A DNA stretch of 64,000 bases from an uncultured bacterium (GTDB lineage Bacteria; Krumholzibacteriota; Krumholzibacteriia; JACNKJ01), in the NCBI GenBank assembly GCA_963695095.1, contig CAVOFT010000001.1, positions 2,336,001 to 2,400,000 of the forward strand, given 5' to 3'. Positions 42,630 to 64,000 of this stretch are shown one piece after another; the stretch's first letter is position 1, and each line of letters opens with the position of its first letter. Below the pieces are notes generated by a model. The model was not told where the DNA came from and made no database searches. It was given only the letters and a program-made list of their open reading frames with translations. The position numbers and the translations under genes are program-made.

Positions 42630-42630
42630 C

Positions 42631-43665
<1,035 letters not shown>

Positions 43666-43684
43666 GGCTTCTCCCCCGTTCCGT

Positions 43685-44342
43685 CTAGGGCAAGAGCCCC
43701 CGCTCCCGGAGGCTGACATGGGCCGCAGCGCCCAGGATCACGTGATCGAGCAACTCGATCCCCATCAGGCGACAGGCCTCCGCGAAGCGAGTCGTGAGGC
43801 GCAGATCCTCTTCGCTCGGCTCCGGATCGCCCGACGGGTGATTATGCGCCATCACCATGGCCGCCGCCGCACTCAGGATCGCCGGCCGCAGAACCTCCCG
43901 CGGATGCACCACCGCTGCGTTGAGCCCGCCCATCGCCACCAGTACGTCGCGCTCCACGCGATGCTTGCTGTCCAGGAGCAGTACGCGGAACTGCTCCTGG
44001 CAGAGGCCGCCCATGCGCGGGCCGAGCAAAGCGACCACGTCCTCGGGGGCGTGGATCGCCGGGCGCTCGCCCAGCCCTGCCCGGACCGCCTGTCTGCCCA
44101 ACTCGAAGCAGGCCAGCAGGCGCAGGGTCGCTGCCGGTCCGAGTTCACCCCAGGCGAGCAGTTCCTGCGGCGCCGCCGCGCCCAGGGCCCGCAGCCCGCC
44201 GAAGCGGCGCAGCAAGCGCGCACTGATGCCGGTCGGTCGCGCTACGCCCCCCGGCGCCAGCAGCGCCGCCAGCAGCGCAGCTGGAGGCAGGTGCTCCGCC
44301 GACCCCGCCAGCAAGCGCGCGCTGGGCAGCGGCTGCGCTCAC
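43685..44342 (-). CDS. radC: RadC/JAB-domain protein; start uncertain, probable indel near the 5' end
   Basis: VHPREV, AHNHPSGDPEPSEED, LLDHVI. Confidence 0.88.
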
Positions 44343-47414: not shown

Positions 47415-48423
47415 CTAGAATGGGTTGCGCAGAGCCTGCGGCGCTCGCCCTCCGAGAAGACCGCCCGGCGCCAGCGTTTCCAGGCGTACTTCAGCGCTCG
47501 CATGCAGCAGCTTCCCGCTTGGCGCCAGGATCCCCACATGGTCGATCCGGGGCTCGCCGTAGAAGAGCAGATCCCCGGGTCGCCAGTCGGCGGGGGCGGC
47601 CAGCGGCCGCGGGCGGCCCCAGACAGCCTGCAAGTCCGCATCGCGGGGCGCGAGGCGACCCAGACTGCCCGAGCAGCACTTGCACCAGCCCGCTACAATC
47701 GAGGCCGGCGCTGCTCGCGCCCCCCCACTCGTAGGGCAGCCCGCAGAGGGCCAGGCCGCGCTCGAGGAGCGCGGCGCGGGCTGCGGTCTCCCCGCGCCGA
47801 TCCGGCCAGGGCGCCAGGTCGGCGACCGGTGTCCAGGCAGGGCGCCCGTCCGGTAGGCGCCAGGGCAGGTAGCCGGCGCGGGCGCGGCCCGACGGGGCCA
47901 GGCGGGTGCCGAAGGACAGATCCAGGAGCGTGTCGGCGCCGGGCGCCGGGGCCGACAGCGCGCGACTGCTCCGCGTGCGCACGACGCGCTGCGGCGGGGG
48001 CCCCTCGCCCAGCACCAGATGCCAGGCGCGGAGCCAGCCCGGATAGCCGTCCTCGCCCGCGCCCAGACACCAGGTCCGCTCCTCGTTCCAGTGCCAGACG
48101 AGGAAGGGATCTCCGAGGCGCAGCTGGGAGATCTGCTCGGCCGCGTGGGCGGGATGGCGGCGCAGCGAGCTGCGGCTGGCGGCGATCCGCCCCGTCGCTC
48201 CCCCGCGCAGGGCCAGCAGTTCCAGCGCGCCGGGCTCGGCGGCCGCCAGGCGCTGGGCGGCGACCAGCGCGCGGCCCGGGCGCAGGAGGAGCCGGCCCTG
48301 GGCGTCCCAGCACCAGGGATGGCGGCGCGGATCGAGGCCCTCCGCCTGGGCGAGGGCCTCCCAGCGGCGTCTCCCCGCAGCGCTCGTGCCTGGGGCTCCG
48401 GGCCCGCGCCTCTGCGCGCTCAT
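47415..48423 (-). CDS. NlpC/P60 (C40) peptidase with SH3-like N-part (YkfC-like), frameshift near 47650
   Basis: SQLRLG..., GYPGW, PYEWGG...DCSGLV; C-part PGDLLFY...DHVGI...HAS. Confidence 0.8.
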
Positions 48424-49286
48424 GGCTTCACCTCCACGGTCTCGAGGACCGGTCGCCCGGCGGCCGCCGGATCCAGCAGATCGCGCAGGGCGTCGCCCAG
48501 CAGGTTGAAGCCGAGCACCGCCAGGGCCATGCACAGGCCCGGGATCAGGGTCAACCAGGGAGCGCGTGCGCAGGTAGCCGAAGCCGTCGCGGATCAGGGT
48601 GCCCCAGCTCGGCTGCGGCGGCTGGGCGCCCAGGCCGAGGAAGCTCAGACTGCCCTCGGCGATGATCGCGCCCGCCATCCCCATGCTGAAGAGCACCCAG
48701 AGCGTGGAGCTGCAGGCCGGCAGCACGTGGACGAGGAGGATGCGCCGGCGCCGGCAGCCCAGCGCACGCGCGGCGTCGATGTAGTCCAGCCGGCGCAGGC
48801 TGAGCACCTGGCTGCGCAGGACCCGCGCGACCGGCGCCCAGCCCAGCACCCCCAGGGCCAGGAAGAGGGTGAGCAGACTGGGCCCGAAGGCGGCGACGAC
48901 GGCGATGAGCAGCAGCAGCGCCGGGAAGGCGAGCGTCATGTCGGCCAGGCGCATGATGAGGCCATCAAGACGGCCGCCGAAGTAGCCGGCCACCAGGCCC
49001 GCCGCCGGTGCCGAGCGCAAGGGCGACGAGGCGCGAAAGCAGCCCGACGAGCAGGCTGAGCCGTGCCCCGGCGACCACCCGCGCGGCGAGGTCGCGGCCC
49101 ACGGCGATCGGTGCCGAAAGGATGCACCGCTGACGGCGGCAGCAGGGCCCGGGAGGGCGCCGTCGCCAGGGGATCGCCCAGGCCCAGCCACTGGCCGCCG
49201 GCGGCTACGGCCACGAAGGCCAGCACCAGCGCGCTCCCGACCAGGAAGCCGCCATGCCGCCAGCCTTCGCGCAGACCCCCGCCCAC
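48420..49286 (-). CDS. Peptide ABC transporter permease (DppC/OppC-like), several frameshifts
   Basis: HPFGTD, AGYFGG, DYIDAARALG, SLSFLGLG, WG, FNLLGDALRDLLDP. Confidence 0.85.
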
Positions 49287-50220
49287 TCAGGCCCCCTCTC
49301 GCCGCGTGCGCGGATCGATCCAGGCATAGCTGAGGTCGACGAGCAGGTTGACGAGCACGAAGGCCAGCGCCATCACGAGGATAGCGCCCTGGATGGCCGG
49401 CAGGTCGCGCTTGGCTACGGCATCGAGCGTGTAGCGGCCCAGGCCCGGCCAGGCGAAGATGCGTTCGGTGAGCACCGAGCCGCTGAGATAGCTGCCGAAG
49501 TCGTTGCCCACGACCGTCACCACGGGCAGCAGCGCATTGCGCAGCCCATGCACCAGGAGCACGCGGGCCGGGTGCAGGCCCTTGGCGCGCGCGGTGCGGA
49601 TGTAGTCCTGGCCCATCACGTCGAGCAGGGAGGCGCGGGTCATGCGGGCGATCAGGGCGGCCGAGGCGGTCCCCAGCGTCAGCGCGGGCAGGATCAGATG
49701 GCGCAGGCTGCCCTCGCCGTAGCCCGAGGGCGGCAGCCAGCGCAGCTGGAGCGAGAAGGCGATAGATGAGCACCATGCCCAGCCAGAAGACCGGCACCGA
49801 GATGCCCGCCGAGGCCAGCACCATGGCGCCGCGATCGAGGAGGGAGCCGGGCCGCAGCGCCGCCGCGACGCCCAGGCCCACGCCCAGCACGGTGGCGATC
49901 AGCATCGCCGCCAGGGCCAGGCGCAGGGTGTGGGGAAAGGTGGTCGCGATCGCCTCGCGCACCGGCTCGCGGGAGACATAGGAGACGCCCAGGTCGCCGC
50001 GGACGAGATCGGCCAGAAAGCGACCGTAGCGCAGGGGCAGCGGGTCGTCCAGGTGCAGCTCGGCCCGCAGCTCGTCGAGCACGGCCTCGTCGTAGCGCTC
50101 GCCGGCGACGGCCTGCACGGGGTCGCCGGGCACCACGTAGAGCAGCAGGAAGCTGAGGAAGGTCACCCCCAGCAGCACGGGCACCAGGGCCAGCAGTCTA
50201 CGAATCAGGAAGCGCCGCAT
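49287..50220 (-). CDS. Peptide ABC transporter permease (DppB/OppB-like), frameshift near 49765
   Basis: PGDP, GDLGVS, PVFW, DYIRTARAKG, ERIFAWPGLG, NLLVDLSYAWIDPR. Confidence 0.9.
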
Positions 50221-51781
50221 CGCGTCGCAGCTCCAGGTAGTCCTGACCGTTGAAAATGAGGGGCGGCTGGTAGCCGGACAGGCCCGGCCCGAGCACCTCG
50301 AGCGAGACGGGGTGCCAGAGCCAGATCCAAGGCGCTTCGCGGTAGATCGTCTCGTTGAGGCGGTTCACCAGGCGCGCCCGCCCGGGGCCGGGCGGACTGG
50401 TCTGCAGCTCGTCGAGCAGAAGGTCCACGAAGGGCTCGGCGAAGGCGGCCCGGTTGCCGCCGCCGCCCAGGTTGCGCGAATGAAAGAGCGGCACCAGGAA
50501 GTTCTCCGCATCGGGATAGTCGGCCAGCCAATCGAGGAAGAAGGCATCGGCGCTGCCCTGGTTCACGGCGTCCTTGAAGGCGCCCCAGTCGCGCACGACG
50601 ATGCGCGCGGTGATGCCGACCTCGGCCAGGTAGGCCTGCACCGCTTCCAGCAGGCGGCTCACTTCCGGATTCTCCTTCTGCCAGATCTCCATGCTGAAGC
50701 CCTCCGCGTAGCCGGCTGCCGCCAGCAGCTCGCGGGCGCGCTCCGGCCGGTAGCGGAACTGCTCACCGGGATCCTCGCTGCGCAGCGCCGGCGGCACCGG
50801 CCCCAGGGAGCGCTGGGCGGCCTGGGCGCGCAGCGTGCGGATCAGCGCCTCGACATCGATCGCGTGATTGAGGGCCTGGCGCACGCGCAGATCGTCGAAA
50901 GGCGGCCGGCGCTGGTTGAGGCCGATGTAGGAGACGACCAGCTCCTCCTGCCGCAGCACCCGACCGCGCCGCTCGCCCGTCAGCCAGTAGTCGGCTTCGG
51001 CCAGGGGCACGCGGAGCAGGTCGAGATTGCCCACCTCGAATTCGGCAACCGCGGTGAAAGGCTGGGGGATGATGCGCAGCTCGAGCCGCTGCATGCTCCC
51101 GGGCGGCGCGGGCTCCCGGCGCTCGAGCAGGAAGCGATCGCCCTGATCCCAGCGCAGGAGCCGCCAGGGTCCGCCGGCGACCGGCAGCCCCCCCACGCGC
51201 AGGGGCCGGCCCGCCTCATCCTGCGGGTAGACACGCGTGGCCGGCATGGCCAGCAGGCCGAGGAAGGGACTGAAAGGGGCGGCCAGCTCGAGCACGAGCG
51301 TGCTGTCGTCGGGCGCCGTGAGGCCGGCCACATCGGTGGACAGGCCGTCGCGGAAGGCCCCCGCCCCGCGCAATCGCTCCAGCACCCAGCGCCGCGGCGA
51401 GGGCGACGCGGGATCGAGCAGGCGGCGGAAGCAGCCCCGCACGCGCCCGGCCGTGATCGGCGTGCCGTCGTCGAAGTGGCGGCCGGTCACGAGATGCAGG
51501 CGGTAGCGGCGGCCACCGGATTCCAGCTCCCAGCGCGCGACGAGGTCGGGCTGGGGCTGGCCCGCCGGATCGAAGCGGAAGAGCCCCGGATAGATGAGGG
51601 AAACCAGGGTGCCTGCGGTCTGATCGACGGCGAAGGCGGGATCCAGGCTCTGCGGCTCCTCCCCGAGATAGGCGCGGAAGCAGGCCGGGTCCGGCGGCTC
51701 GCCGCGGCCGCAACCGGCCGGTCCCGCGGCAAGCAGGGCGAGGAACACGGTGGCGGCGAGCGGCCGGGCGCGGCGTGGCAT
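50198..51781 (-). CDS. Peptide ABC transporter substrate-binding lipoprotein (SBP family 5)
   Basis: Lipobox PAGC; SLDPA, DGTPITA, GPW, RVRQALNHAID, WLADYPD. Confidence 0.9.
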   Translation of the reverse strand: MPRRARPLAATVFLALLAAGPAGCGRGEPPDPACFRAYLGEEPQSLDPAFAVDQTAGTLVSLIYPGLFRFDPAGQPQPDLVARWELESGGRRYRLHLVTGRHFDDGTPITAGRVRGCFRRLLDPASPSPRRWVLERLRGAGAFRDGLSTDVAGLTAPDDSTLVLELAAPFSPFLGLLAMPATRVYPQDEAGRPLRVGGLPVAGGPWRLLRWDQGDRFLLERREPAPPGSMQRLELRIIPQPFTAVAEFEVGNLDLLRVPLAEADYWLTGERRGRVLRQEELVVSYIGLNQRRPPFDDLRVRQALNHAIDVEALIRTLRAQAAQRSLGPVPPALRSEDPGEQFRYRPERARELLAAAGYAEGFSMEIWQKENPEVSRLLEAVQAYLAEVGITARIVVRDWGAFKDAVNQGSADAFFLDWLADYPDAENFLVPLFHSRNLGGGGNRAAFAEPFVDLLLDELQTSPPGPGRARLVNRLNETIYREAPWIWLWHPVSLEVLGPGLSGYQPPLIFNGQDYLELRRDAALPDS

Positions 51782-53049
51782 CAGCCGTTCATCACGCGCA
51801 GGAGGACGAAATCGCCAGCGCCGTGGCGGTCCTCGAAGACGTAGACCAGCCCGGCGCCCAGGTAGTACCAGTACTCGAGCTGGCGGAAGTTGCGGTCGTC
51901 CTCCACGAGCTCCGTGCGATCCGGAGCGCCGCGCTCCAGGTAGACCTGGCCCCGATCGCTGAGGTAGCCGTCGCGCTGGCCGGCCTCGAAGCGGGCGTTC
52001 GCCTCGCTCACGCGCTCGCAGAAATCTGCCAGGGCGCTGTTCTCGCCCCGGTCGCCGGCCGCCAGTCCTCGCCGGTCCCAGAAGGCCTGCCAGCGAGCCG
52101 CGCGTTCGGCGGCAGGGGCGGCCGCCAGCTCATCGCGCTCATCGGCGCTGGCCAGGGGCCGCAGGAGGCCCAGCGTGCGCTCCCACTCGCGGCCGAAGGC
52201 AGCCGGCGTCAGCCCCACGTCCAAGCGTCCGCGCAACTGGCGGCGCTCCTCGCCGGTCACCAGCTCGCAGTCGAGGCGGTAGACGCCCATCGCAAGTCTG
52301 GCCTGCGGGAGTTCCCAGGCCAGGCTGTGTCGGCCCGGCGGCAGCAGCAGCTCGCGCCGCGCATAGTAGAGCAGCTCGCCCCGCCGGTCCTCGAGGCTGA
52401 GCAGGAGTTCGCCCCGCAGTTCGCCCTCGCCCCAGTTGTGCACGTCGCAGGCGAGACCGATGGTCGCCGCGTCGCCGTCGGTGAAGCAGCTCACGGCGGC
52501 GGGGAGCCGCCAGGGGTCGTGAAAGAAAAAGGGCGGCGTCCGCTGCCCGCTGCCGCGGCCCGGAGCCCAGCGCGGGCCCTGGAGGAAGAGCGCACTGCTC
52601 GCCAGATCGGGCACCTCGAGCTCGAAGCGCTCGCGCCAGGGCTTGGCCTCGCCGCGGCTGTAGATGAGCGCCTCCACCCGCCACGCGCCGGGCCCCAGCG
52701 CCAGGCCGAAGCTGCGCCTGTAGTGCTCCTCGCGCCGGCGGCTGGCCGCGAAGTCGGGCACCGTGACCTCATCGTGCAGGAGCAGGTTGGCCTCCTCGCG
52801 GTCGCTGCGGCGCTCGGCGCGGCAGGCGATGCGCAGCCGGGCCGCGAAGCCCGCCCCGCTGCGCTCGAAGACGAGCTGCTCGTACGGAATCCGCAGCTCG
52901 AAGTCGAGGCGGGCGCCCCCGGAGTCGGGCAGGGAGAGGCTGTGATCGAGGCGGACGTCGCGTGGCAATTCCTCGCGCGCCCCGGCGAGCGCGAGCCCGG
53001 ACGAGACGACCAGCAGCATCAGGCCGGTGAGCGCGGTGCGCGATTGCAT
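51781..53049 (-). CDS. GWxTD-domain protein (copy 1)
   Basis: Signal peptide; FWDRR...RVSEANARF...GYLSDRGQVYLERGAPD...EYWYY...FED..G.GDF. Confidence 0.8.
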   Translation of the reverse strand: MQSRTALTGLMLLVVSSGLALAGAREELPRDVRLDHSLSLPDSGGARLDFELRIPYEQLVFERSGAGFAARLRIACRAERRSDREEANLLLHDEVTVPDFAASRRREEHYRRSFGLALGPGAWRVEALIYSRGEAKPWRERFELEVPDLASSALFLQGPRWAPGRGSGQRTPPFFFHDPWRLPAAVSCFTDGDAATIGLACDVHNWGEGELRGELLLSLEDRRGELLYYARRELLLPPGRHSLAWELPQARLAMGVYRLDCELVTGEERRQLRGRLDVGLTPAAFGREWERTLGLLRPLASADERDELAAAPAAERAARWQAFWDRRGLAAGDRGENSALADFCERVSEANARFEAGQRDGYLSDRGQVYLERGAPDRTELVEDDRNFRQLEYWYYLGAGLVYVFEDRHGAGDFVLLRVMNG

Positions 53050-53159
53050 GCCCTGTCCATGGCGGCTGGAGCCGGCGGCACGCCGGCCCCGCTGTGAACA
53101 TTCAGCAAAGGGCGGCGGCTGTCCAGGGCAAAGTGGCGGTGCGCCTCGGCGCCGCTGGC

Positions 53160-53834
53160 CTAGCGGCGCTCGTCGCTCTCGATGCGGCCGTCGCGCAGGC
53201 GCAGGGAGCGGTGGGCATGAGCGGCGATCTCCGCCTCGTGCGTGACGAGGATCACCGTCTGTCCGCTCGCGTGCAGATGATCGAAGATGGACATGATCTC
53301 GTCACCCGTGCGCGTGTCGAGATTGCCCGTCGGCTCGTCGGCGAGCAGGATGGCCGGCTCGTTGACCAAGGCCCGCGCAATGGCAACGCGCTGGCGCTGG
53401 CCGCCGGACAGCTCGTTGGGCTTGTGGTGGGCGCGATCCTGCAGGGAGACCGCTGCGACGGCGGCCTCGACGCGGCGCCGCCGCTCGCCGGCGGGCAGGC
53501 CGGCGTAGACGAGCGGCAGCTCCACATTGTGATAGACGTCCGCCCGCGGCAGGAGATTGAAGGTCTGGAAAACGAAGCCGATCTGCCGATTGCGGATGCG
53601 CGCCAGCTCGTCGTCGCCCATTGCCGACACCCGCTCGCCGTCCAGCAGGTAGCTGCCGCTGCTCGGAGAGTCGAGGCAGCCGATGATGTTCATCAGCGTC
53701 GACTTGCCGGAGCCGGAGGGACCCATGATCGCCATGTACTCGTTGCGGGCGATGTCGAGGTCCACGCCGTCCAGGGCCCGCACTTCGCTCTGTCCGACGC
53801 GGTAGACCTTGGCCAGGGCGCGGATTTCGATCAT
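53160..53834 (-). CDS. ABC ATPase, MacB/LolD family
   Basis: [44 protein letters not shown]. Confidence 0.93.
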
Positions 53835-53845
53835 GGCGCAGCCCC

Positions 53846-55210
53846 CTAGTGCGCCAGGGTCCAGCCGGTGCTGCGCTCCAGCTCGGCCAGGGCCGTCAGG
53901 TAGCCGGCCACGCCTTCGATCTCGCTGGCGCGGCCCTGGACCAGGGATACCTCGGCTTCCGTCACCTCGAGCAGGGTCGCCGCGCCGACGCGGTAGCGCT
54001 CGCGCGCCAGGCGGAGGTCCTCCTCGGCAAGCGTAATCGTCGCTCTGGCGAGTTCGATGCGCTTGCGATTGTTCTCGAGGGTGACGAGGGTATTCTCGAG
54101 GCCCTGCGCAACGCCGCGCGCCTGCTGATCGATCGCGTACTCCCGCTGCCGGTAGCTGGCGCGCGCCTGTTGCACGCTGCGCTTGGTCTGGAAGCGGTCG
54201 AAGAGATCCCAGCTCAGCCCGACCGAGAGCGCGTAGCTGTAATCCTCGCTGAAGACGTCAAAGGCCCGATCCGGCGGGCTGAGATCGTACCAGCTGAAGC
54301 GGTAGCTGGCCCCCACGCTTGGCCAGAGGCCCGCTTGCGCCACGCGCAGGTTCTGGCCGGCTGCGGCGCTGCGCAGGCCGGCGGCGCGCAGGGTCGGGTC
54401 GTTGGCCAGGGCGGCCGCGAGCGCGGCATCGCGATCGACGGCGGCGAAGCTGGCGATCAGCGGGCCCTGGACACTGAGCGGCCCCTGCGTCTCCCGGCCG
54501 ATGAGAGTGGCCAGGGCGACCCGAGCCAGCGCCCAGCCGTTCTCCGCCTCGAGCAGTCCCAGGCGCGCTTCCGCCAGGCGCACGCCTGAGCGCAGCGTAT
54601 CGGAGCGTGCCACCGCGCCCATGGCGAAGGAGCGCCGGGTCTGCTCGTGCTGCTCGCTGCTCGCCTGCAGGCTGCTCTGCTTGAGCTCTACCAGCAGTTG
54701 CGCCTTGGCCAGCTCGTAATAGGCCCGGATGACCGCCGTCTCCACCTCATTGCGGGTGCGATCGAGATCGGCGGTGTCGGCGGCCAGCGAGTAGCGCTGC
54801 CCCCGCAGGGAGGCCCAGCGCGAAAAGCCGGCGAAGAGCGTGAGGTCGCCCGAGAGACTGAAGTTGTAGGTCTCGTAGTCGCGGCTCTGGATCGGATCCT
54901 GAACGAAGAACTGCTGTGTGATGGTGTTGTACTGCTGGCTGGCCGGCTTCGGACCGACGAACTGATGGCTGTAGGACAGGGAGGTCGCCAGGCTGGGCAG
55001 GAAACTGCCGTAGGCGCCGAGCAGGCCCGCGCGCGTGGAAATGAGCTGCTGCCGGGCCGTGGCCAGCTCCGGCGAATGGCGATAGGCCAGCTCCAGGCAC
55101 TGCTCCAGGTCCAATGTCTGCGCCGTGGCTCCCGGCGGCGCGAGCAAACAGGCAAGCAGCAAGACGAGGCAGCAGCACTGGCGCGCAAGGCGGCGAGACA
55201 TAGAGGGCAC
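53846..55210 (-). CDS. TolC-family outer membrane efflux protein
   Basis: Signal peptide; two OEP repeats, [18 protein letters not shown]. Confidence 0.9.
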
Positions 55211-55306: not shown

Positions 55307-55335
55307 AAAAAAACGGGGGGCCGGGCGGCCCCCCG
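55307..55335 (-). terminator. Intrinsic terminator after tonB
   Basis: Minus strand CGGGGGGCCG-cc-CGGCCCCCCG-TTTTTTT. Confidence 0.8.
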
Positions 55336-55352
55336 CGCGGTCCTGGGTCCGC

Positions 55353-55982
55353 CTAGCGGCCACGGACCCGGAATTCGAAGGGGACGCTGATGGTGGTCTT
55401 CACGGGGACGTTCCGCTGCTTGCCCGGCTTGAATCGCCATTTCCAGGCCGCAGCGATGGCCTCGTCGACCAGGATCTGCGGCACGGAGCTGCTGAGCATC
55501 TGCACGTTGAAGACGTTGCCGCGCTCGTCGACGAAGATGAGCACCAGCACCACGCCCTCCATCTCGGCTTCGCGCGCCATTTCGGGATAGCGGGGCGCCT
55601 GGCGGTAAGTGGGCGCCGGCGCTTCATCGAAGGCATAGAACTGCTTGGGACCGCCGCCAAAAGCGGCCGAAACAGGCGGCGGGATGGCATCGATGTCCTC
55701 GAAGCTGGTGTCCTCGATCGTCTCCTCGTCGGATACCTCATCCGAGATCTCGATCTGCACCGGCACCTTCGGCATCTCGACTTCCTGCGGCGGCGGCGGG
55801 ATTTCGATGTCCGCGGGGATCTCGATGACTTCCAGGATCTCCTCTTCCAGCCTGTAGGGACTGCTCACGTACTGTGGCCAGAAAAGGAACATGGCCACCA
55901 CGAGGGCGAAGGTGGCCACGAGCGCATAGCGCACCTGCTTGGCGTAGCCCTGCTTGATGAACTGCTGAACGGTGATGACCAT
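55353..55982 (-). CDS. tonB: Energy transducer TonB
   Basis: N-terminal TM, Pro/Glu linker, PRYPEMAREAEMEGVV...WRFKPG. Confidence 0.9.
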   Translation of the reverse strand: MVITVQQFIKQGYAKQVRYALVATFALVVAMFLFWPQYVSSPYRLEEEILEVIEIPADIEIPPPPQEVEMPKVPVQIEISDEVSDEETIEDTSFEDIDAIPPPVSAAFGGGPKQFYAFDEAPAPTYRQAPRYPEMAREAEMEGVVLVLIFVDERGNVFNVQMLSSSVPQILVDEAIAAAWKWRFKPGKQRNVPVKTTISVPFEFRVRGR

Positions 55983-55997
55983 GGCCGTTCTCCTGGG

Positions 55998-56411
55998 CTA
56001 CCGGGTTGCCGATTCGACGTCGCTGGAGAAGACGACGCGCACCGCATTGATGGCCTTCAGCTCTTCCATGATCGAGTTCATGACCTCGTAGCGAACGCGG
56101 CTATCCGCCTTGAAGGCCACCACGAGCAAGGGGTTCGACTCCATGCGGCGCTTCATCACCGCCTGGATATCCGGTAGATAAACCAGCTTGTCGTTGATGG
56201 ACACCCGCCCCTTCTGGTCCACCCAGATGTTGGCCAGCTGCTCGCTGCTCTGCTTCTTCGAAGCCTCGGCGCGGGGCAGCGTGACATCGAGGCCGTTCTC
56301 CTGCTTGAAGATGGTGGTTGCCATGAAGAAGATGAGCAGCAGGAAGACGATATCCCCCATCGTTGCGGTGGGGATACCCGGCGCCCGCTTCTTGGCCTTT
56401 TCGATGTTCAC
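55998..56411 (-). CDS. exbD: ExbD/TolR family protein
   Basis: MGDIVFLLLIFFM; KADSRVRY. Confidence 0.9.
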   Translation of the reverse strand: MNIEKAKKRAPGIPTATMGDIVFLLLIFFMATTIFKQENGLDVTLPRAEASKKQSSEQLANIWVDQKGRVSINDKLVYLPDIQAVMKRRMESNPLLVVAFKADSRVRYEVMNSIMEELKAINAVRVVFSSDVESATR

Positions 56412-56419
56412 GGATCCCC

Positions 56420-56833
56420 CTAGCTGTCCGTCATCTTGATCGAGATCTTCTTGATCTGGGCCAACTTCAGCTCATCGAGGATGTCGATCATCACGCCGTA
56501 CTGGGCCTGGGGCGCGGTCTGGATGACGACGATGAGCTTGGGGTTGATGTCCTGGGCTTCCCTCGCGATGCGGCGCACTTCGCCGATCTTGGTCGGCAGC
56601 CCCTTCACCGTGATCGAGTTGTCCGCGTTCGCTTTGATCTCGAGGATGTTCTTGCGGCTGACCTGAGCCGCCTGGCCCGACTCGCCGCTGGGCAGCACCA
56701 GCGGCAGGCCCATGTCCTCGTTGAAGACCGTGCTCACGATGAAGAAGATCAGGAGCAGGAAGGAGATGTCGGCGACGGTCGCGTTGCCGATCTCGGGAGT
56801 CCCGCGCTTCTTCTTCCTGGCCAGCATGCCCAT
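56420..56833 (-). CDS. exbD: ExbD/TolR family protein
   Basis: VADISFLLLIFFIV; YGVMIDILDELK. Confidence 0.9.
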   Translation of the reverse strand: MGMLARKKKRGTPEIGNATVADISFLLLIFFIVSTVFNEDMGLPLVLPSGESGQAAQVSRKNILEIKANADNSITVKGLPTKIGEVRRIAREAQDINPKLIVVIQTAPQAQYGVMIDILDELKLAQIKKISIKMTDS

Positions 56834-56857
56834 GGGGTCAACCTCCGCCTCGCTGGC

Positions 56858-57706
56858 CTAGAGCCCCAGCTCGGTCAGCTCGTTGATCAGCTCCGCACTG
56901 GTCTCTTCCATCTCCACGACGAAGCGGTCCACCTGAGCAGTGAAGTACGAGTGAAAGAGACTTGTGGGGATGGCGATGATCAGGCCGGCGGCCGTGGTGA
57001 TCAGCGCCTCGGCGATGCCCGAGGCCACGAGCTTGGCGCTGACCTGGTCAGCGGAGGCGATGGCCTCGAAAGCGTGGATCATGCCCGACACCGTGCCGAG
57101 GAAGCCGAGCATCGGCGCCACGACGACGACGGCCGCGATCGCCGCCAGGCCCCGCTCGAGGAAGGCCATCTCGATGGCACCTGCCGTGTCGATGGCCTTC
57201 TCCACGGCCTGCGGGCCGCGGGCCGTCTTGAGCAGGCCGGCGTGCAGGATGGCCGCGATGGGTCCTCGCGTGCGCTCGCAGGTGCGGATGGCCGCGTCCA
57301 CCCCCTCGCTGCGCAGGGACTTCTGGATGCCGTACATCAGCTTGCGCGTGTTGACGCGGGCGCGCGAGAGCGTCCACAGCCGCTCGAGCACGAAGACGAG
57401 CCCGACGATCAGGGAGATGAGCAAGGGCCACATGAAGGCGCCACCGTCGATGAACATCTGCCCCGAGCCCGAGCGGCCCAGGCGCGTGCCTCTGAACCAG
57501 GCCTCGAAGCCGCCTTCGGAGTAGTAGGCGGCGAAGGCCTCGGCAAGCCCGGTGGTGTCCGAGTCGGCCACGGCACCCGGGGCGATGCGATAAGCGGCCC
57601 CACTCGCTGCTGCACCGCTCTCCTGAGCCAGTGCCGGCAGGGCGATCAGCAGGGTGAGCATGCCGACGGCCAGGAGAGCCCACGAGAGACGCTTCCAGAT
57701 GTTCAT
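56858..57706 (-). CDS. exbB: MotA/TolQ/ExbB proton channel protein with N-terminal extension
   Basis: APMLGFLGTVSGMI, GIAEALITTAAGLIIAIP; signal-like N-terminus. Confidence 0.92.
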   Translation of the reverse strand: MNIWKRLSWALLAVGMLTLLIALPALAQESGAAASGAAYRIAPGAVADSDTTGLAEAFAAYYSEGGFEAWFRGTRLGRSGSGQMFIDGGAFMWPLLISLIVGLVFVLERLWTLSRARVNTRKLMYGIQKSLRSEGVDAAIRTCERTRGPIAAILHAGLLKTARGPQAVEKAIDTAGAIEMAFLERGLAAIAAVVVVAPMLGFLGTVSGMIHAFEAIASADQVSAKLVASGIAEALITTAAGLIIAIPTSLFHSYFTAQVDRFVVEMEETSAELINELTELGL

Positions 57707-57837
57707 CGATCCCTACTCCTTAATCAGCGTGAATGCCGTCCGGACCGAACCCGACCTGCGGGCAACCGTGGTACGGACTCCCTCATCGACTGCAAGTGCT
57801 TTGGCATGGCGGGTTTCAACGGACTCAAGGGCGTTTC

Positions 57838-57867
57838 ACTATAGTGACCGCCTCCAGGGCCTGTCAA
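57838..57867 (-). promoter_or_regulatory. Promoter of exbB-exbD-exbD-tonB
   Basis: TTGACA-18 bp-TATAGT. Confidence 0.65.
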
Positions 57868-57900
57868 CCCGAAAAGCGCCCGGCCAATGGCACCAACTCC

Positions 57901-59415
57901 TTAGAAATCAAAGTCCTCCGAGCGGTAACCGAGCGTGTAGTCGCCCGTGCCGCTGCGGTCCACAAAGATCAATTGCAGGCTCGGCCGGCGCAGATGCAGC
58001 CGCTGCTCAGGCAGCAGTGGACTGCCGCCGAACTCGTAGGTCCACACCTCGTAGGGCTCGCTGTCGTCGCCGAAGTTGATGGCGCTGCCCGTACCGATGG
58101 TGCCCAGGTCCCTGCCCAGCTCACTGCTGCGCTCGACGCCGGCATCCTGGGTGAAGTCCACGCCATAGGGTGAGATGCCCGGCTCGATCGCCGCTTCCCC
58201 GTGCAGGCCGCGCACGGCGTCGCTCAAGCCCGTGCGATTGAGCGGCATCGCCTCGCCCTCGATGCTGACCGGTTCCCCCAGCCGGATCAAGATGCGGCCG
58301 CGATCGCTGAGCGCTCCCGGGCGAAAGCCCGCGTAGCGCACCTGGGCCGCCACGAAGCGCTTCAGGAATTCGTCGTACACGGCGTTCTCCTCGGTGGCGG
58401 GATCCGGATCATGGCGCTTCCAGAAGGCCGCCATGACGGCCTCGCGCTCGGGCGCCGGCAGCCCCTGCCAGCGCTGGAACTCGTCACCCTTGAGGAAAAG
58501 CTGTGCTGCAATCGCCTGCTGCGCAAGCGCGGAAGGCGCTTCGGTCGACTCGCCAAGGATGCGCAGGCTGCAGTCGACACCGGTGCTGTCGATCTCGGGA
58601 CCGCGGGCCTCCAAATGCAGACGGTAGCCGCCGGGCGGCAGCTCGGTCAGCGGTAGGCGATAGCGCAGCGGCAAGGGCGCGCCGGCCTCGTACTTCCAGC
58701 CGCCCTGCTTCTCGAGGCGCAGAACGCCGCCGGCGTCGTGCAGGGTCAGCCGCAGGCCGATGTAAGCGCCTTGGGCCGAGTCCGGCGGCAGGAAGGCCGT
58801 CTCCAGCTCCATCGCCGGGGTGCCGCCGGCGAAGACGCCGCTGGGACTCAGGGCGCCGCGCTCGCCGGCGATCGGAGCCCAATAGAGGAGTGGGTCGCCC
58901 AGGCCGCCCGCGCTGAAGTCCCGAGCGGTGAGGGTCGTGCTGAGAGCGGCCTCCGGCTGGCGTCCGAAGAGACCGGCGACGCCGCCGATCCGGCGCCCCG
59001 CGTCGCGGCACTCCAGCTCGAGCCGGTACTCGCCGGGCGGCACCGCCACCGATCGCAGGTAGAGCATGGTGGTCAGGGGAGTCCGCACGTCGCGCGAGAA
59101 GTCCAGACGCTCCTCCACGGCCGCCGCTTGGTGGCCCAGCGCATGCAGCGACCAGCGGCAGGCCAGGTGGGCCACGAGGCTATCGCCCTGCTGGCTCCAG
59201 GCCAGCTCCGCGGCGGGGAATTCCACGACGAGCAGGAGCCGGGTCAGGCCGGCCGGTGCAGGCTCGCTGTAGCTCTGGGCGGAGAACTCGAAATCCCCGC
59301 GCCCCGGGGGCAGCGGCCGCCCCAGCGCCGGCATCACCGATGCAAGCAGCAGGGCCGCCAGCAAAGCCGACCGCCGGCTCTCCCTTCCTCTCGCTGCCCT
59401 GGGCGCTCCGCTCAC
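57901..59415 (-). CDS. GWxTD-domain protein (copy 2)
   Basis: FWKRHDPDPATEEN...EFLKRF...GALSDRGRILIRLGEP...YEVWTY...FVDRSGTGDY. Confidence 0.82.
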   Translation of the reverse strand: MSGAPRAARGRESRRSALLAALLLASVMPALGRPLPPGRGDFEFSAQSYSEPAPAGLTRLLLVVEFPAAELAWSQQGDSLVAHLACRWSLHALGHQAAAVEERLDFSRDVRTPLTTMLYLRSVAVPPGEYRLELECRDAGRRIGGVAGLFGRQPEAALSTTLTARDFSAGGLGDPLLYWAPIAGERGALSPSGVFAGGTPAMELETAFLPPDSAQGAYIGLRLTLHDAGGVLRLEKQGGWKYEAGAPLPLRYRLPLTELPPGGYRLHLEARGPEIDSTGVDCSLRILGESTEAPSALAQQAIAAQLFLKGDEFQRWQGLPAPEREAVMAAFWKRHDPDPATEENAVYDEFLKRFVAAQVRYAGFRPGALSDRGRILIRLGEPVSIEGEAMPLNRTGLSDAVRGLHGEAAIEPGISPYGVDFTQDAGVERSSELGRDLGTIGTGSAINFGDDSEPYEVWTYEFGGSPLLPEQRLHLRRPSLQLIFVDRSGTGDYTLGYRSEDFDF

Positions 59416-59473
59416 CGGTCACTCCCTCGCGGGTCCGCCGCGCCTGCACAGCGGCTGCTCAGGACCGCCCCGC

Positions 59474-60406
59474 CTAGTAGGCGAAGCTCACGCTGAAACG
59501 GTGCGCCCCGCCAAGGTAGGACAGGTCCTCGAAGGCATAATCGACGAAGAGCCGCGAGCGCTCGCTCGTGCTCACCGCGACGCCGAAGCCGGCGGCGACG
59601 CCGCTGGCGTCATAGCCGGCGTTGTAGCCGCCACGCAGGAAGAGGAAGCGGTTGAAGCTGTACTCGGCACCGAGATTCGCCCGCTCCTTGTTGTCCGGCG
59701 GATGGCTGAACTCCACGCTGCTGATCATGTGATGCGGCCCGCTGTCGAAGGCATCCGCAGACAGCCCCACCTTGAACATGATCGGCATCTTGGCGCCCTG
59801 CGAGTCGAAGTCCACCTCGCCACCGGCATTCTGCACCACCATGCCCAGACGCATCCCCTGGATGCCGATCCGGTAGACGAGACCGAAATCGAAGGCCGAT
59901 GTGTTGACGGCCTTGTCGGCCAGCCCCATGTGGATGAAGTGCACGGTCACGCCGGTGGAGAAGCGCTCGGTGAAGTACTGCGCATAGGTCAGGCCGAAGC
60001 TCATGTCCCCCGCGTCGAACTCGCGGCCCGTGCCGTCGGGCAGGTAGATCGTGCGCTCGACCTGGGGGTCCATCGTCAGCGCGCGGGCGGTGATGCCGAG
60101 CACGCCGGGCAGATAGGGCGTCCGGAAGGCATAGGAGACGAAGTCGAGCTTGATGTCCGCCGGCCATTCGACGTGGTTCAGGTGCAAGGCCGTGCGCGGC
60201 ACATCGACCAGCCCTCCCGGATTCCAGTAGGTGGCGCTGGCGTCATCGGCGACGGCGACGAAACCGTTGCCCATGCCCGCCGCGCGAGCGGTGGGCCCGA
60301 TCTTGAGGAACTGAGCGCTGAAGGTGCCGACCTTTTCGAAGATCTGCGCCTGCGCGACCCCAGCGATCAGGATGAGGGCCATGGTCAGCAGCGCTGTGCG
60401 TTTCAC
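59474..60406 (-). CDS. PorV/PorQ-family outer-membrane beta-barrel
   Basis: AQFLKIGPTARAAGMG...DDASATYWNPGGL N-terminal signature; ends HRFSVSFAY. Confidence 0.88.
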   Translation of the reverse strand: MKRTALLTMALILIAGVAQAQIFEKVGTFSAQFLKIGPTARAAGMGNGFVAVADDASATYWNPGGLVDVPRTALHLNHVEWPADIKLDFVSYAFRTPYLPGVLGITARALTMDPQVERTIYLPDGTGREFDAGDMSFGLTYAQYFTERFSTGVTVHFIHMGLADKAVNTSAFDFGLVYRIGIQGMRLGMVVQNAGGEVDFDSQGAKMPIMFKVGLSADAFDSGPHHMISSVEFSHPPDNKERANLGAEYSFNRFLFLRGGYNAGYDASGVAAGFGVAVSTSERSRLFVDYAFEDLSYLGGAHRFSVSFAY

Positions 60407-60457
60407 GTTCTACCTCCCGCAAGATCCCTTGCTCGAGTCCGGCTCCGTCGGGGCCGA

Positions 60458-62983
60458 CTAGCGAATGACGATGAACTTGCCGACCTTCCGGTCGAAACCG
60501 TCGGCCTCCACGGAGAAGATGTACACGCCGCTGGCCACGTCCTGGCCGTTGCGGCTCACCAGATCCCAGGCGGCGGTGCCCGTCGATGCGTAGTTGCCCG
60601 TGGCGATGGCCGCCACATTGTCGTGGACGATCTCCTTCACCAGATCGCCCGCCAGCGTGTAGATGCGGATCTTGCAGCGGGCCGCCGGCAAATGGCGGAA
60701 TTCGACCTTGAGCCCCGTCGGATCGTCGTTGTTCGGATTCAGCGCCCAGGGCGCCATCGAGGTCGGCGTCGCCGGATTCGGCACCACGTAGACCTCGTCC
60801 GCATTGTAGGACCAGACCGGCTGGCTCTCGCTCTGCGGCACCGTGTAGACGAAGCCGCTGGATGGGTCCCCCGACAAGCCCGTCGCGTAGCCGATGAGGA
60901 CGCCGTTCTGGAAGACCCGGATGTGGTCCATCGCCGTGACCGAATAGAAGTAGTGCATGCCCGTGTGGACGCGATCGTCCTCGTAGCGATAGTAGACCTT
61001 GCCGCCAGGCAGGCCGAGCTGGGTCTTGGCCAAGGCGATCGCCGTATCGCCTGCGGCCAGCGTGTAACCCGTGGGCGGCAGCAGCTCCCGCGCCGACTGG
61101 ATGCTCGGGTTCTCCATCAGCGCATCGGCATAGAAGGCGAGCAGCGAAGCGTCGACGTTGGGCTGGTAGCGCAGGCTCTCGAGGCCGGTGTCGGCGCCCA
61201 GCTCATTCTGGAGATCGAACTCGGCCAGCAGCATCCACAGGTCGGTGCTGGGCCCGTTGGCGATCGAGGAACCGAAGGGGCGGTCCCAGTTGTCGGCGCG
61301 CCAGACGCGATAGCCCTCGAAGTCGTAGATGAGCTCGCTGACATCGGGGATCGTCTCGCTGAAGTTGTCCCAGAAGAGCACGTTCTTGCCCTCGGTGGGC
61401 CAGATGCGCAGGTTGGGCGGTGGCGGCGGCGAGCCGTAAAGCCAGTTGATCTGCCGCTCCAGGCCGTCATTGCCCGTGCACCACCAGGCGTCGGTGCCGG
61501 GTACGGCGCCGGGCTGGCAGAGGGCATTGGCCTCGTTCTCGAAGATGCAGTCGTCGTTGACCCAGACGCGCGTGCCCTTGGTGACGAGGATGGGCGGCGA
61601 CAGCGTATCGCAGGGGCTCGCCCACTCGATGTCGTTGAAGGGATCGTAGAGCAGGGTCTCGGCGCAGTAGGCGGTGGGATCCGGCGTATTGATGTCCCCG
61701 TCGAGGTTGAACCAGTTGCCGTCGTAGGTGAGCTTGGCCTGGGCGGCGTTGTCGAGCAGTCCCTCCCGGCCGAGGCCGACGACAAAGGCCACCTGGAATT
61801 TCAGGCTGTCACCCGACTCGACGAGGAAGGGTCCCGCCGACAGCAGCATGCGGAAGTCGCGCGGCACGTTGGGCTTCTTGTCGCTGGTCTCGGCGCTCAT
61901 CAGGGCGTAGCGCTGCTCGTCATTGGTGGGATCGCCGCCGTCCTCGAAGGAGGCGCTGCCGCTGAAGGCCTGCCAGGAGCGCAGGGTGACGCGGGGCGGC
62001 GCCTTGACCCCGGCCGGGTCGATCGTGTGGCCCATGAACATGATGCCGATCTGGCCCAGGGCCGGCGAATCGCCGTCGAGATCGCCGTCCTGGTCGAAGG
62101 CGACGCCCATCGCGTACTTGACCGGGATCTCGAAGGCGCCCTTGGTGACGCAGGCCGTGGCGTCGACGACGTCGACCAGGTCGTCATCGAAGTTGTTGGG
62201 CCGGCTGCGCGCGCCGACGTCGGGATCGGCGAAGAAGCCCAGGTAGAAGTCCTCCAAGGTCGCCTCGCCGATGTTGTAGATGGTGAATTCGACACCGACG
62301 AAGTCGTCCACGCGGTCGTTCTCCCACTGGTAGCTCTCCTGGACGACGAAGAGGTTCAGGGGCTGGTGGTCCGCGGACTGGGCGTAGCTCTCGGGCAGGT
62401 CGTCCCGGTAGGTGCAGTGGAACATCTGGTTGGAGATGGCCGCGTAGTCCTCGTCGATCGCGCCATCGCCGTCGTCGTCGAAGCCGTTGAGGGGATCCTC
62501 GTCGATCTTGCCGTCGTTGTCGTCGTCAGCGGCCGGCGAGGGCAGCCGGTTGCCGTTGCGTGTCCCCTCGAAGCTGCGGTAGAGCGTGTAGATGGGCTCG
62601 ATGCCGGGACGGAACTCCCAGAGGCCCCAGTCGCTGGTGGAGACGCGCGGGATGCCCGAGACCCGAGCGCCGCACCACAGGCCCGCGCCCCAGAGGTACT
62701 CGACGCCGCTGCCGGCCGGCCACTGGGCAGAAGGCGACTCGGCCATCGCGAAGCCGGAGTTCGGATAGGAGCCGAAGACACCGAAGTTGGTGATGTTCAT
62801 CTGCAGCTCGCCCACGTTGTGGACGAAGGTGCCGTCGATCATGAGGGTACCGTTTCCATTCAGCGGGGCCTGCGCGGCTCCGGCTGGCAGCGCCTGGCGG
62901 GCGGCCGCAGGCAGCGCGAAGACGAGCAGGCAAAGGCCGGCCCCGAGCAAGCGCGCTGAGGTCCCCTTGATCAGTGCGGACAT
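60458..62983 (-). CDS. Large secreted hypothetical protein with a T9SS-like CTD variant
   Basis: Signal peptide; DxDxDG repeats; PPPPPNL and FEGYRVWR fibronectin-like segment; VYVVPNP...IRIYTLAGDLVK...WDLVSRNGQDVASGVY...GKFIVIR. Confidence 0.8.
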   Translation of the reverse strand: MSALIKGTSARLLGAGLCLLVFALPAAARQALPAGAAQAPLNGNGTLMIDGTFVHNVGELQMNITNFGVFGSYPNSGFAMAESPSAQWPAGSGVEYLWGAGLWCGARVSGIPRVSTSDWGLWEFRPGIEPIYTLYRSFEGTRNGNRLPSPAADDDNDGKIDEDPLNGFDDDGDGAIDEDYAAISNQMFHCTYRDDLPESYAQSADHQPLNLFVVQESYQWENDRVDDFVGVEFTIYNIGEATLEDFYLGFFADPDVGARSRPNNFDDDLVDVVDATACVTKGAFEIPVKYAMGVAFDQDGDLDGDSPALGQIGIMFMGHTIDPAGVKAPPRVTLRSWQAFSGSASFEDGGDPTNDEQRYALMSAETSDKKPNVPRDFRMLLSAGPFLVESGDSLKFQVAFVVGLGREGLLDNAAQAKLTYDGNWFNLDGDINTPDPTAYCAETLLYDPFNDIEWASPCDTLSPPILVTKGTRVWVNDDCIFENEANALCQPGAVPGTDAWWCTGNDGLERQINWLYGSPPPPPNLRIWPTEGKNVLFWDNFSETIPDVSELIYDFEGYRVWRADNWDRPFGSSIANGPSTDLWMLLAEFDLQNELGADTGLESLRYQPNVDASLLAFYADALMENPSIQSARELLPPTGYTLAAGDTAIALAKTQLGLPGGKVYYRYEDDRVHTGMHYFYSVTAMDHIRVFQNGVLIGYATGLSGDPSSGFVYTVPQSESQPVWSYNADEVYVVPNPATPTSMAPWALNPNNDDPTGLKVEFRHLPAARCKIRIYTLAGDLVKEIVHDNVAAIATGNYASTGTAAWDLVSRNGQDVASGVYIFSVEADGFDRKVGKFIVIR

Positions 62984-63016
62984 GATGCGTCCTTTCTCGC
63001 AGCCTGGCGCCGGGCG

Positions 63017-64000
63017 CTAGAACTCGAAGCCAAAGCCGATGCGGAAGATCCGCCGCGGTTCGAAGACCCGCGGGTCGTCCACCGGGTGGAATTCGTCCTC
63101 GCCGTCGCCATCGAGGTCGGTCAGATAGGCGCCGCCGTACTGGCCGGTCTCCGTCAGATAGTAGGTGTAGGCGTTCTGCGCGTAGCGGAGGCCGGGGAAG
63201 ATGCCTGGGTCGTGGGCGTTGATCTGATCCTGGTCCAGCAGGTTGCGGCCGTCGAAGAACAGCGTCAGATCCTGGCCCCAGACGTTGAAGTACTTCTCCG
63301 CCTGCAGCGAAAGGCTGTGCGTGGCCGGGTAGCGGCGGCTGTTCTCGAGCTCGGGATCCTGGCGCCGGATGTAGCGGAAGGCCGGCGTGTAGGGGAAGCC
63401 CGAGCCGAAGCTATAGATCACCGAGCCGCCCCAGCTGCCCGGATCGGCCAGCCGCAGCGTCGCCGAGAGCGAGTGGCGCTCGTCCCAGCCCAGGGGCAGT
63501 TCCTTGGTGGGCAGGTGGGTCAGGCCCGCGGCGCTCGTGGCGCCGAAGGTCGCATCGGAGGCGACGCCGTCGGCATAGCTCAGCGTGTAGGCGACCTGGC
63601 CGCCGTAGTTGTCGGCGAACTGCCGGCTCAGCGTGATCTCCACGCCGCGCGCCGAGGCGTAGGCCTTGTTGATGTAGCGGCCGAACTGGTTGCCGCTGAT
63701 GGTGTCGATGGCGGTCGCCGAGGAGATGAGGTCGAAGATGTCCTTGTAGAAGATGGCGAAGTCGCCCACCACGTGCTCCGTGAACTGGTGCTTGACGCCG
63801 GCCTGGTAGGAGATCGTGATCTCGGGATCGAGATCCGGGTTGCCGAGCAGGCCCACGCCCGCATTCGGGTCCTGGGTCTGGAAGAGGTAGTTGTTGGCCG
63901 GAGCCTGGATGAAGCGTCCGTAGTGGAAGTGGAACACGTCCCGGTCGGTGATCGGGAAGGCCAGGCCCAGGCGCGGGCTCAGCGACTGCTTGAAGCGCCG
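63017..64000 (-). CDS. TonB-dependent receptor, C-terminal part (5' end outside window)
   Basis: SPRLGLAFPIT, GNPDLDPEITISYQ, FYKDI, NLLD, ends PRRIFRIGFGFEF. Confidence 0.9.
   Translation of the reverse strand, partial: RRFKQSLSPRLGLAFPITDRDVFHFHYGRFIQAPANNYLFQTQDPNAGVGLLGNPDLDPEITISYQAGVKHQFTEHVVGDFAIFYKDIFDLISSATAIDTISGNQFGRYINKAYASARGVEITLSRQFADNYGGQVAYTLSYADGVASDATFGATSAAGLTHLPTKELPLGWDERHSLSATLRLADPGSWGGSVIYSFGSGFPYTPAFRYIRRQDPELENSRRYPATHSLSLQAEKYFNVWGQDLTLFFDGRNLLDQDQINAHDPGIFPGLRYAQNAYTYYLTETGQYGGAYLTDLDGDGEDEFHPVDDPRVFEPRRIFRIGFGFEF

Follow-up and report, generated by a model that had tools for sequence, protein, structure and literature searches.

A conserved trio of TonB-dependent receptor, CTD-bearing surface protein and PorV/PorQ-family barrel as a candidate SusD-less uptake module in Krumholzibacteriota

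[quoted passage not shown] In relatives of this bacterium the three genes, which we call the trio, occur together or not at all around the gene of the CTD protein (CTD841, also called the partner below), and the three protein families co-diversify, as judged from their trees. We consider it fairly probable that the trio is a SusD-less capture-and-import module, in which the partner is mounted by type IX secretion on a barrel of its own, and which sits here in a dipeptide/oligopeptide transporter cluster. An earlier note, made from the sequence of the window, had proposed an undescribed system at this place, and its novelty holds within the literature searched: no description of the trio was found there, supplements being outside the scope of the search.

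Results

The trio is kept all-or-none and co-diversifies

The genome comprises 3.64 Mb in two contigs and is 93.5% complete; in the last 20 kb of the window the G+C content is 61-75%. The earlier note had laid out eight genes here, and open reading frame (ORF) listing combined with Pfam and NCBIfam scans finds all eight in place on the minus strand. The first four, encoding the receptor (3′ part of 327 codons, 63017..64000), CTD841 (60458..62983), the barrel (59474..60406) and a GWxTD protein (57901..59415), are separated by gaps of 33, 51 and 58 nt and are followed by genes for ExbB, two ExbD copies and TonB.

To follow these genes through relatives, we used 16 loci of close relatives and 51 metagenome loci of distant relatives, the latter scored with hidden Markov models built from the close set. 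Linkage was counted for the CTD841-family genes scoring at least 90 bits (46 genes) that have at least 1 kb of sequence upstream and at least 0.5 kb downstream (31 genes). Among these 31 genes, 24 have a TonB-dependent receptor upstream and a barrel downstream, seven have neither, and none has one alone. The raw count was 23, 7 and 1, and was corrected because the single case, in locus L008, proved to be a parsing miss with the barrel in plain sight. The survey of relatives that the earlier note had called for therefore finds the triad conserved as a unit.

In close relatives, the gene order is DppD-DppF-receptor-CTD841-barrel-GWxTD-ExbB-ExbD-ExbD-TonB-TolC-ABC ATPase-GWxTD-binding protein, and is kept wherever the contig reaches. 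The order is also kept in L020, from a metagenome-assembled genome labelled Fibrobacteraceae (41% identity), up to the second GWxTD gene, where its reach ends; in L023, labelled Gemmatimonas, the contig stops after the first GWxTD gene. The copies of the cluster in L020 and L023 are sisters (their barrels have end branches of 0.11 and 0.14), and since they stand under different phylum labels, the bins are mislabelled or the cluster was recently transferred. The G+C content of the distant loci is 33-52%, as against 66-70% here. Ton genes accompany 12 of the 24 trios, either after the GWxTD gene as here or, in seven loci, as exbB-exbD-exbD-tonB between the receptor and the partner; close to six other trios, for which 5 kb or more of sequence is available downstream, there are no Ton genes.

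This genome also contains two further, diverged trios (L004 and L005; 25-35% identical). At L004 the order is receptor, barrel, an unassigned ORF and a 760-aa partner homologue, and at L005 it is receptor, partner homologue and barrel, the last trio coming after a LacI-type regulator. An apparent 1980-aa receptor-partner fusion at L005 was rejected: periodicity of G+C at third codon positions (GC3) reveals two genes under one open frame, with the receptor C-terminus in another frame, ending at L005 10548.

A tree of the barrels separates 30 trio barrels, by one branch (SH-aLRT 81), from six non-trio paralogues of this genome, including the PorU-adjacent PorV. Subclades are congruent across the receptor, partner and barrel trees. 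In addition, the stand-alone partners L010, L014 and P0031 (this genome) are recent duplicates nested among trio copies in the tree.

The receptor has an ordinary Plug and barrel and lies outside the SusC/RagA subfamily

The 5′ end of the receptor gene lies beyond the window, as the earlier note had cautioned, and the remainder was read from the genome. The whole gene (G000:C1:2399017-2402067; L001 1017-4067) encodes 1016 aa with a signal peptide and the C-terminus ...FGFEF. Specifically, it contains PF13715 (CarbopepD_reg_2) at residues 36-117, PF07715 (Plug) at 135-212 and PF00593 (barrel) at 472-943, the last scoring 79 bits on the part inside the window. The SusC/RagA subfamily model TIGR04056 scores 47.4 bits against a cut-off of 368.25, through model positions 2-118 alone. 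An assignment as an Oar-type barrel was dropped: PF25183 reached 18.3 bits (cut-off 30) on a C-terminal fragment and is absent from the match list of the full protein. Trio receptors make up three of the nine Plug-bearing receptors of the genome.

CTD841 combines a beta-supersandwich with a PorZ-like CTD

CTD841 consists of a signal peptide, a beta-supersandwich (residues ~45-517), a cysteine-rich stretch, an FN3-like and helical part, and a beta-sandwich CTD (~732-841); an acidic DDDxDG insertion inside the supersandwich is invariant and disordered. The protein matches no Pfam family, and NCBIfam offers a single match, in which its last ~115 residues align with the C-terminal end of NF052228, the PorZ model, with 33 bits (cut-off 260) and an E-value of 2.3e-8. 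When the C-terminal 130 residues are scanned alone, the PorZ end scores 37.5 bits (E 1e-9) and TIGR04183, the type-A CTD, 18.6 bits (cut-off 23). The PorZ end is the best CTD match in five of six sampled trios, namely at this locus and at four of five others. PF13860 (FlgD_ig) is present in 7 of the 120 homologues listed.

The AlphaFold2 model of CTD841 has a mean predicted local distance difference test score (pLDDT) of 71.7, from an alignment of 37 rows. In VIA-align, residues 45-517 resemble the N-domains of GH15 glucoamylase and glucodextranase (Z 19.5, root-mean-square deviation 2.9, 236 residues aligned), and further likenesses of the supersandwich are to the P1 domain of YidC and to the N-domains, also non-catalytic, of enzymes in GH94 and GH65. 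Foldseek with the entire model gives only low TM-scores of 0.2. The predicted fold is of a non-catalytic, ligand-binding type.

The partner family is large and unnamed. Of 7999 candidates scored, 709 are homologues at E ≤0.001, and all names displayed for the 120 listed ones read 'hypothetical protein'. Organism labels on listed homologues include Krumholzibacteria, Latescibacterota and Chitinivibrionia, and names on homologues include Krumholzibacteriota, Eisenbacteria, Latescibacterota and Fibrobacterota; in the Protein Atlas, the nearest clusters are unnamed and come from Eiseniibacteriota and Krumholzibacteriota. An exhaustive profile search retrieved 8566, 3512 and 626 representatives of 50%-identity clusters at E ≤1e-3, ≤1e-10 and ≤1e-30, respectively, and the family occurs in 151 of 151 sampled genomes of the phylum, with 1 to 12 matches per genome. 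Tandem pairs of partner-family genes with no receptor or barrel are frequent, for example at L022 7775-15283 and G012:C77:101733-106915.

The barrel is predicted to hold the CTD

The barrel is a 310-aa protein of the 14-strand type with a signal peptide, and it exceeds the PorV/PorQ family cut-off by a wide span (NF033709, 185.6 bits; cut-off 90). It falls below the equivalog cut-offs for PorV (NF033710, 63.9 bits; cut-off 250), PorQ (NF033711, 80.9 bits; cut-off 220) and PorV2 (NF052325, 80.5 bits; cut-off 325). The family assignment of the earlier note, which spoke of a PorV-family barrel, therefore stands, while the protein itself is a paralogue of PorV: on sequence evidence, a trio-dedicated one, not the canonical PorU-adjacent PorV.

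Complex prediction with barrel residues 21-310 and partner residues 515-841 gives an ipSAE of 0.93, the best of three controls reaching 0.00; the earlier note had suggested modelling the receptor, the CTD protein and PorV together. The mark used for such predictions is reached by 116 of 157 solved complexes and by 2 of 215 mismatched pairs. The predicted interface with the barrel is formed by the partner CTD (residues 732-841); from run to run, at least 99% of contacts are the same, and the pLDDT of the partner is at least 80.

The genome has about ten PorV-family genes, nine of which lie behind a gene that encodes a large protein; a CTD is recognisable in five of these large proteins. This arrangement fits one barrel per partner. 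Longer PorV-family proteins (P0292-P0331) are fusions with Reg_prop, OmpA, TPR or fn3 domains, Reg_prop being the repeat type of the PorZ propellers.

Type IX components are encoded elsewhere in the genome, and SusD is missing

The search for SprA that the earlier note had advised yields a match of 423.7 bits (cut-off 200) about 34 kb past the window end. PorU (438.4 bits; cut-off 420), with a C25 peptidase domain, is encoded about 170 kb before the window start and adjoins the best-scoring PorV-family gene. Across the whole genome, about 40 more stretches match just the CTD end of the PorU model, which indicates that CTD-bearing cargo is plentiful. The GldL/M/N models (TIGR03517, PF12081, TIGR03513 and TIGR03523) have no match in the genome, and no control genome rises over the cut-off either. 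Candidate GldK-like matches were rejected as generic FGE-sulfatase proteins below cut-off; at both loci inspected, GldL/M/N-like neighbours are missing, and the ORFs considered there are translations in a wrong frame.

SusD (PF07980) has no match in the whole genome, a Bacteroides thetaiotaomicron control being positive, and the genes directly upstream of the receptor are a pair of DppD/DppF-type ABC ATPase genes. The absence of SusD that the earlier note had read from the window thus extends to the genome.

Discussion

A probable capture-and-import module with a partner mounted by type IX secretion

In the mechanism that we favour, CTD841 would be exported by the ordinary type IX system, whose SprA, PorV and PorU are encoded elsewhere. 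The PorZ-like CTD would stay uncut and dock on its cognate barrel in the manner of the PorZ-PorQ and PorU-PorV pairs, and the barrel would keep the beta-supersandwich protein at the surface next to the transporter. The partner would then capture a substrate and pass it to the transporter, which would be opened by the neighbouring ExbB-ExbD-ExbD-TonB motor. The inward direction of transport is suggested by the import-type neighbours of trios. The earlier note had proposed that the CTD protein is held by its own barrel as a substitute for SusD. Conservation, the paralogous trios of this genome, co-diversification, the missing SusD, the fold and the CTD-barrel model all speak for this proposal, in which the contact with the receptor and the action as a lid are putative.

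The likeliest substrate here would be peptides or peptidoglycan-derived peptides, handed on by the flanking Dpp/Opp-type ABC importer, an idea that we hold tentatively and with more doubt than belief. Specifically, the cluster is flanked by DppD/F on one side and by a family-5 binding protein, DppB/C and an SH3b-NlpC/P60 peptidase on the other. In addition, four trios of one distant clade (L053, L060, L065 and L075) lie beside a CTD-bearing N-acetylmuramoyl-L-alanine amidase (Amidase_2+CTD). Among these amidase-linked trios, GH18 and diaminopimelate decarboxylase genes are found in two loci, FG-GAP genes in two or three of the four, and NamZ together with LD- and DD-carboxypeptidases in L053 only. 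This neighbourhood has the look of a peptidoglycan-salvage setting, as far as gene content can tell, and by analogy the settings of trios seem to follow the logic of polysaccharide utilisation loci.

A broader reading, to which we give somewhat less than even credence, is that such trios represent a widespread SusD-independent class of TonB-dependent uptake complexes in the candidate phyla around Bacteroidota, one that physically couples type IX secretion to TonB-dependent import. The barrel would dock against the side of the transporter, in the way BamG meets BamA, and keep a capture protein with its CTD retained above the pore. Like polysaccharide utilisation loci, the units would have undergone duplication and specialisation, for substrates including peptides and peptidoglycan debris. 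If so, the recent solitary partner duplicates could be interchangeable heads for one barrel-transporter base.

Several points weigh against the import reading or narrow it. Seven of the 31 family genes occur without receptor and barrel genes. Neither TonB-dependent receptor nor PorV domains are present among the neighbours examined in L014, L022 and L030, and those in L040 match no family. Support for a single clade of trio barrels is moderate (81), and the outgroups all come from one genome. PorV-CTD complexes have already been solved, so the success of the barrel-CTD prediction may reflect likeness only, and since close cousins of a true partner can pass as well, the model shows no specificity. 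None of the 40 longer PorV-family proteins (P0292-P0331) is fused to a receptor or a CTD841-family protein. The contact between partner and receptor is putative, the receptor falls by its sequence outside the SusC/RagA subfamily, the supersandwich fold names no ligand, and the peptide or peptidoglycan substrate is read from the neighbouring genes only. Furthermore, the promoter-like site before exbB means that co-transcription of the motor with the trio is not implied, and with no match to GldL/M/N, in searches that had no positive control, the export route is not fully accounted for.

Alternative explanations

CTD841 could instead be a barrel-tethered surface enzyme that works on a polymer while the receptor imports the products, still as one uptake unit. 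Several features would suit an enzyme: Asp, Glu and His are invariant at many positions of CTD841 (H206, E442 and D686-H687 among them), as are four cysteines; the supersandwich fold also occurs in galactose mutarotase and in domains that build glycoside hydrolase active sites; and secreted hydrolases lie beside some trios. We nevertheless regard it as unlikely: neither Pfam nor NCBIfam places the protein in a catalytic family, its fold matches are limited to the non-catalytic N-domains of glycosidases, and separate CTD-bearing enzymes beside some trios suggest a division of labour. Quite improbable, in our estimate, is an export or display machine in which the receptor-like barrel, with its Ton motor, would drive the CTD protein outward or mount it there. 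The Oar transporter of Myxococcus reportedly transports PopC outward; Ton genes lie inside the trio in seven loci, one locus (L026) joins a PorV paralogue to ExbB-ExbD-TonB with no receptor, and GldL/M/N are without a match in the genome, albeit in searches that had no positive control. The receptor, however, has an ordinary Plug and barrel, which gives the Ton motor an obvious client, SprA, PorU and PorV are all encoded in the genome, and the trios are surrounded by ABC importers and recycling enzymes. The suggestion of the earlier note that the motor energises a non-canonical route of CTD export thus finds no support, given the make-up of the receptor and the SprA and PorU-PorV pair of this genome.

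Two further readings were considered. The barrel might be a FadL-type channel for a hydrophobic product, with the CTD protein anchored through the canonical PorV and PorU. PorV is a member of the FadL fold family, and the barrel has a weak Toluene_X match (E 0.0018, 17.3 bits, below cut-off), but it lies far over the PorV/PorQ family cut-off, complex prediction, its controls being clean, places the CTD on it, and it co-occurs strictly with the CTD protein (24 loci with both neighbours, none with one alone), all of which makes such a channel highly improbable. Least credible is a chance assembly in which a T9SS cargo gene of the ordinary sort and a surplus PorV paralogue sit beside a receptor and a Ton operon. 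The promoter-like site at exbB, the terminator at tonB and the solitary members of the family would be expected of chance neighbours. Against chance stand the all-or-none pattern of the trio in lineages whose G+C content ranges over 33-71%, the three paralogous copies that one genome contains, and the congruence of the trees, and the conservation data already disfavour this explanation.

Relation to known systems

The capture-and-import module that we propose shares several traits with SusC/SusD and RagA/RagB: a large transporter with a CarboxypepD_reg-type N-terminal domain, a Plug and a barrel is encoded beside a surface partner, and several diverged copies per genome occur in substrate-specific loci that also encode secreted enzymes, regulators and inner-membrane importers. 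It differs in that the genome has no SusD/RagB homologue and the receptor lies far under the SusC/RagA cut-off, in that the partner is neither a lipoprotein nor helical in the TPR-like manner but a beta-supersandwich with a T9SS CTD, and in having an obligatory third gene, the barrel. SusC/SusD-type complexes explain polymer harvest by Bacteroidota; the trio, if our reading is true, would answer with different parts how uncultured relatives harvest polymers without SusD.

The pairing of a CTD protein with a cognate PorV-family barrel is also seen in PorZ-PorQ and PorU-PorV of Porphyromonas gingivalis, and the likeness goes further, as the trio CTD best matches that of PorZ and the trio barrel scores higher for PorQ than for PorV. 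The partner, on the other hand, has neither the beta-propellers of PorZ, its model being a supersandwich, nor a C25 peptidase domain, and the pair is tied to a TonB-dependent receptor and not to cargo attachment, for which the genome has a separate PorU-PorV pair. According to a review, PorU and PorZ keep their CTDs, which stay on PorV and PorQ, and cognate PorV-like barrels are suggested to protect CTDs (PMC10202324).

In BamA-BamG-BamH, as described in two papers, a FadL-family 14-strand barrel lies against a larger barrel, and its extracellular loops hold a surface protein (PMC12578637, PMC12611786). We propose by analogy the same arrangement for receptor, barrel and partner. The likeness does not go beyond architecture: BamH is a lipoprotein, BamG stands outside the PorV/PorQ family, and the large barrel BamA is not a transporter.

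A receptor with a dedicated surface capture protein is known from TbpA-TbpB. BtuB-BtuG is a second such pair (PMC10404256). Unlike CTD841, the partners in these two systems are lipoproteins of other folds and have no barrel anchor. The trio is thus a set of known parts and principles in an undescribed combination.

If our reading is true, PorV-family paralogues would, beyond secretion, serve a nutrient transporter as structural anchors. Naming the partner family would annotate thousands of 'hypothetical proteins', and the peptidoglycan-salvage context of the amidase clade suggests a route of necromass recycling in sediments and soils.

Ton motor, GWxTD proteins and flanking genes

ExbB (282 aa, 56858..57706; PF01618, 110.6 bits), the first ExbD (56420..56833; PF02472, 74.4 bits), the second ExbD (55998..56411; PF02472, 78.6 bits) and TonB (209 aa, 55353..55982; PF03544, 74 bits; TIGR01352, 58.7 bits) are all encoded on the minus strand and together supply the MotA/ExbB channel, the ExbD and the TonB C-terminal domain of an ExbB-ExbD-TonB energiser. 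ExbB has an N-terminal extension. It matches the ExbBs inside distant trios at 154-199 bits over the full length, versus at most 105 bits for six paralogues of the same genome.

The earlier note had cautioned that exbB has its own promoter, and a σ70-like site (TTGACA-18-TATAGT; 57838..57867, minus strand) that matches at 11 of 12 positions is indeed found 5′ of exbB. Two such sites occur in 14 kb, versus 0.9 expected; the site is a consensus match only, and this consensus may not be the promoter type of the host phylum. Behind tonB lies a hairpin resembling an intrinsic terminator (55313..55336, minus strand), with a 10-bp stem, nine of whose pairs are G-C, and a T run next to it. The two signals, one 5′ of exbB and one 3′ of tonB, indicate that the motor is probably a separate transcription unit.

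Outside the window, L026 (G000:C1:1816653-1830752) joins a PorV paralogue to a Ton-like set with no receptor. Its order is a 2336-aa protein with a FlgD_ig-type CTD, the PorV paralogue, a 998-aa TPR/YfiO-like protein, ExbB, ExbD and a 446-aa TonB_C protein, and its ExbB scores 274 bits against the trio-ExbB profile, the highest among paralogues outside the window cluster.

Both GWxTD proteins of the window are above the TIGR04514 cut-off of 28 (59.9 bits for the first, 60.5 bits for the second) and represent two of the three such genes in the genome. The first keeps its slot after the barrel in window-type relatives. Its ORF has 504 aa, while the entry in the collection has 477 aa, for which the start would be at 59334. 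The model of this protein (pLDDT 79.4) shows two Ig-like beta-sandwiches followed by an alpha/beta GWxTD domain. Fold matches cover residues 8-265 only and are generic sandwiches (Z up to 12.6), nothing being listed by the fold searches for the C-terminal GWxTD domain. A sequence search gave 18 homologues, and the word GWxTD was not found in the literature searched.

Downstream on the minus strand, Pfam and NCBIfam scans identify a TolC-like channel (53846-55210), a LolD/MacB-like ABC ATPase (53160-53834) and a family-5 solute-binding protein (50198-51781), with the second GWxTD protein (51781-53049) between the last two. The order TolC, ABC ATPase, GWxTD and binding protein is kept in L008, L009, L011, L012, L013 and L017. 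Within 51781-55210 of the window, no permease or membrane-fusion gene lies between the TolC-like channel, the ATPase and the second GWxTD gene.

The dppB and dppC permease genes and the SH3b-NlpC/P60 peptidase gene follow at 47491..50220 (minus strand; Pfam), with one long ORF running through all of them. GC3 periodicity indicates that the coding frame shifts several times under this open ORF. The frame shifts here and in L005 7875-13817 are assembly indels or pseudogenes, and frame shifts under one long open ORF lead to false 'fusions' in ORF lists. An SH3_16 match and a partial NlpC/P60 match lie at ~47494-48200 (minus strand, inside a 909-aa ORF), right behind dppC. This is the domain pair of YkfC-type murein-peptide endopeptidases, and it hints at a Dpp system that handles cell-wall peptides.

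No RNA dataset is listed as containing the stretch, and eight DNA datasets each hold at most 0.12 of its words. A few kilobases downstream of the transporter cluster, and on the same strand, are the cell-wall elongation genes mreB-mreC-mreD-PBP2-RodA (window 38102-43719).

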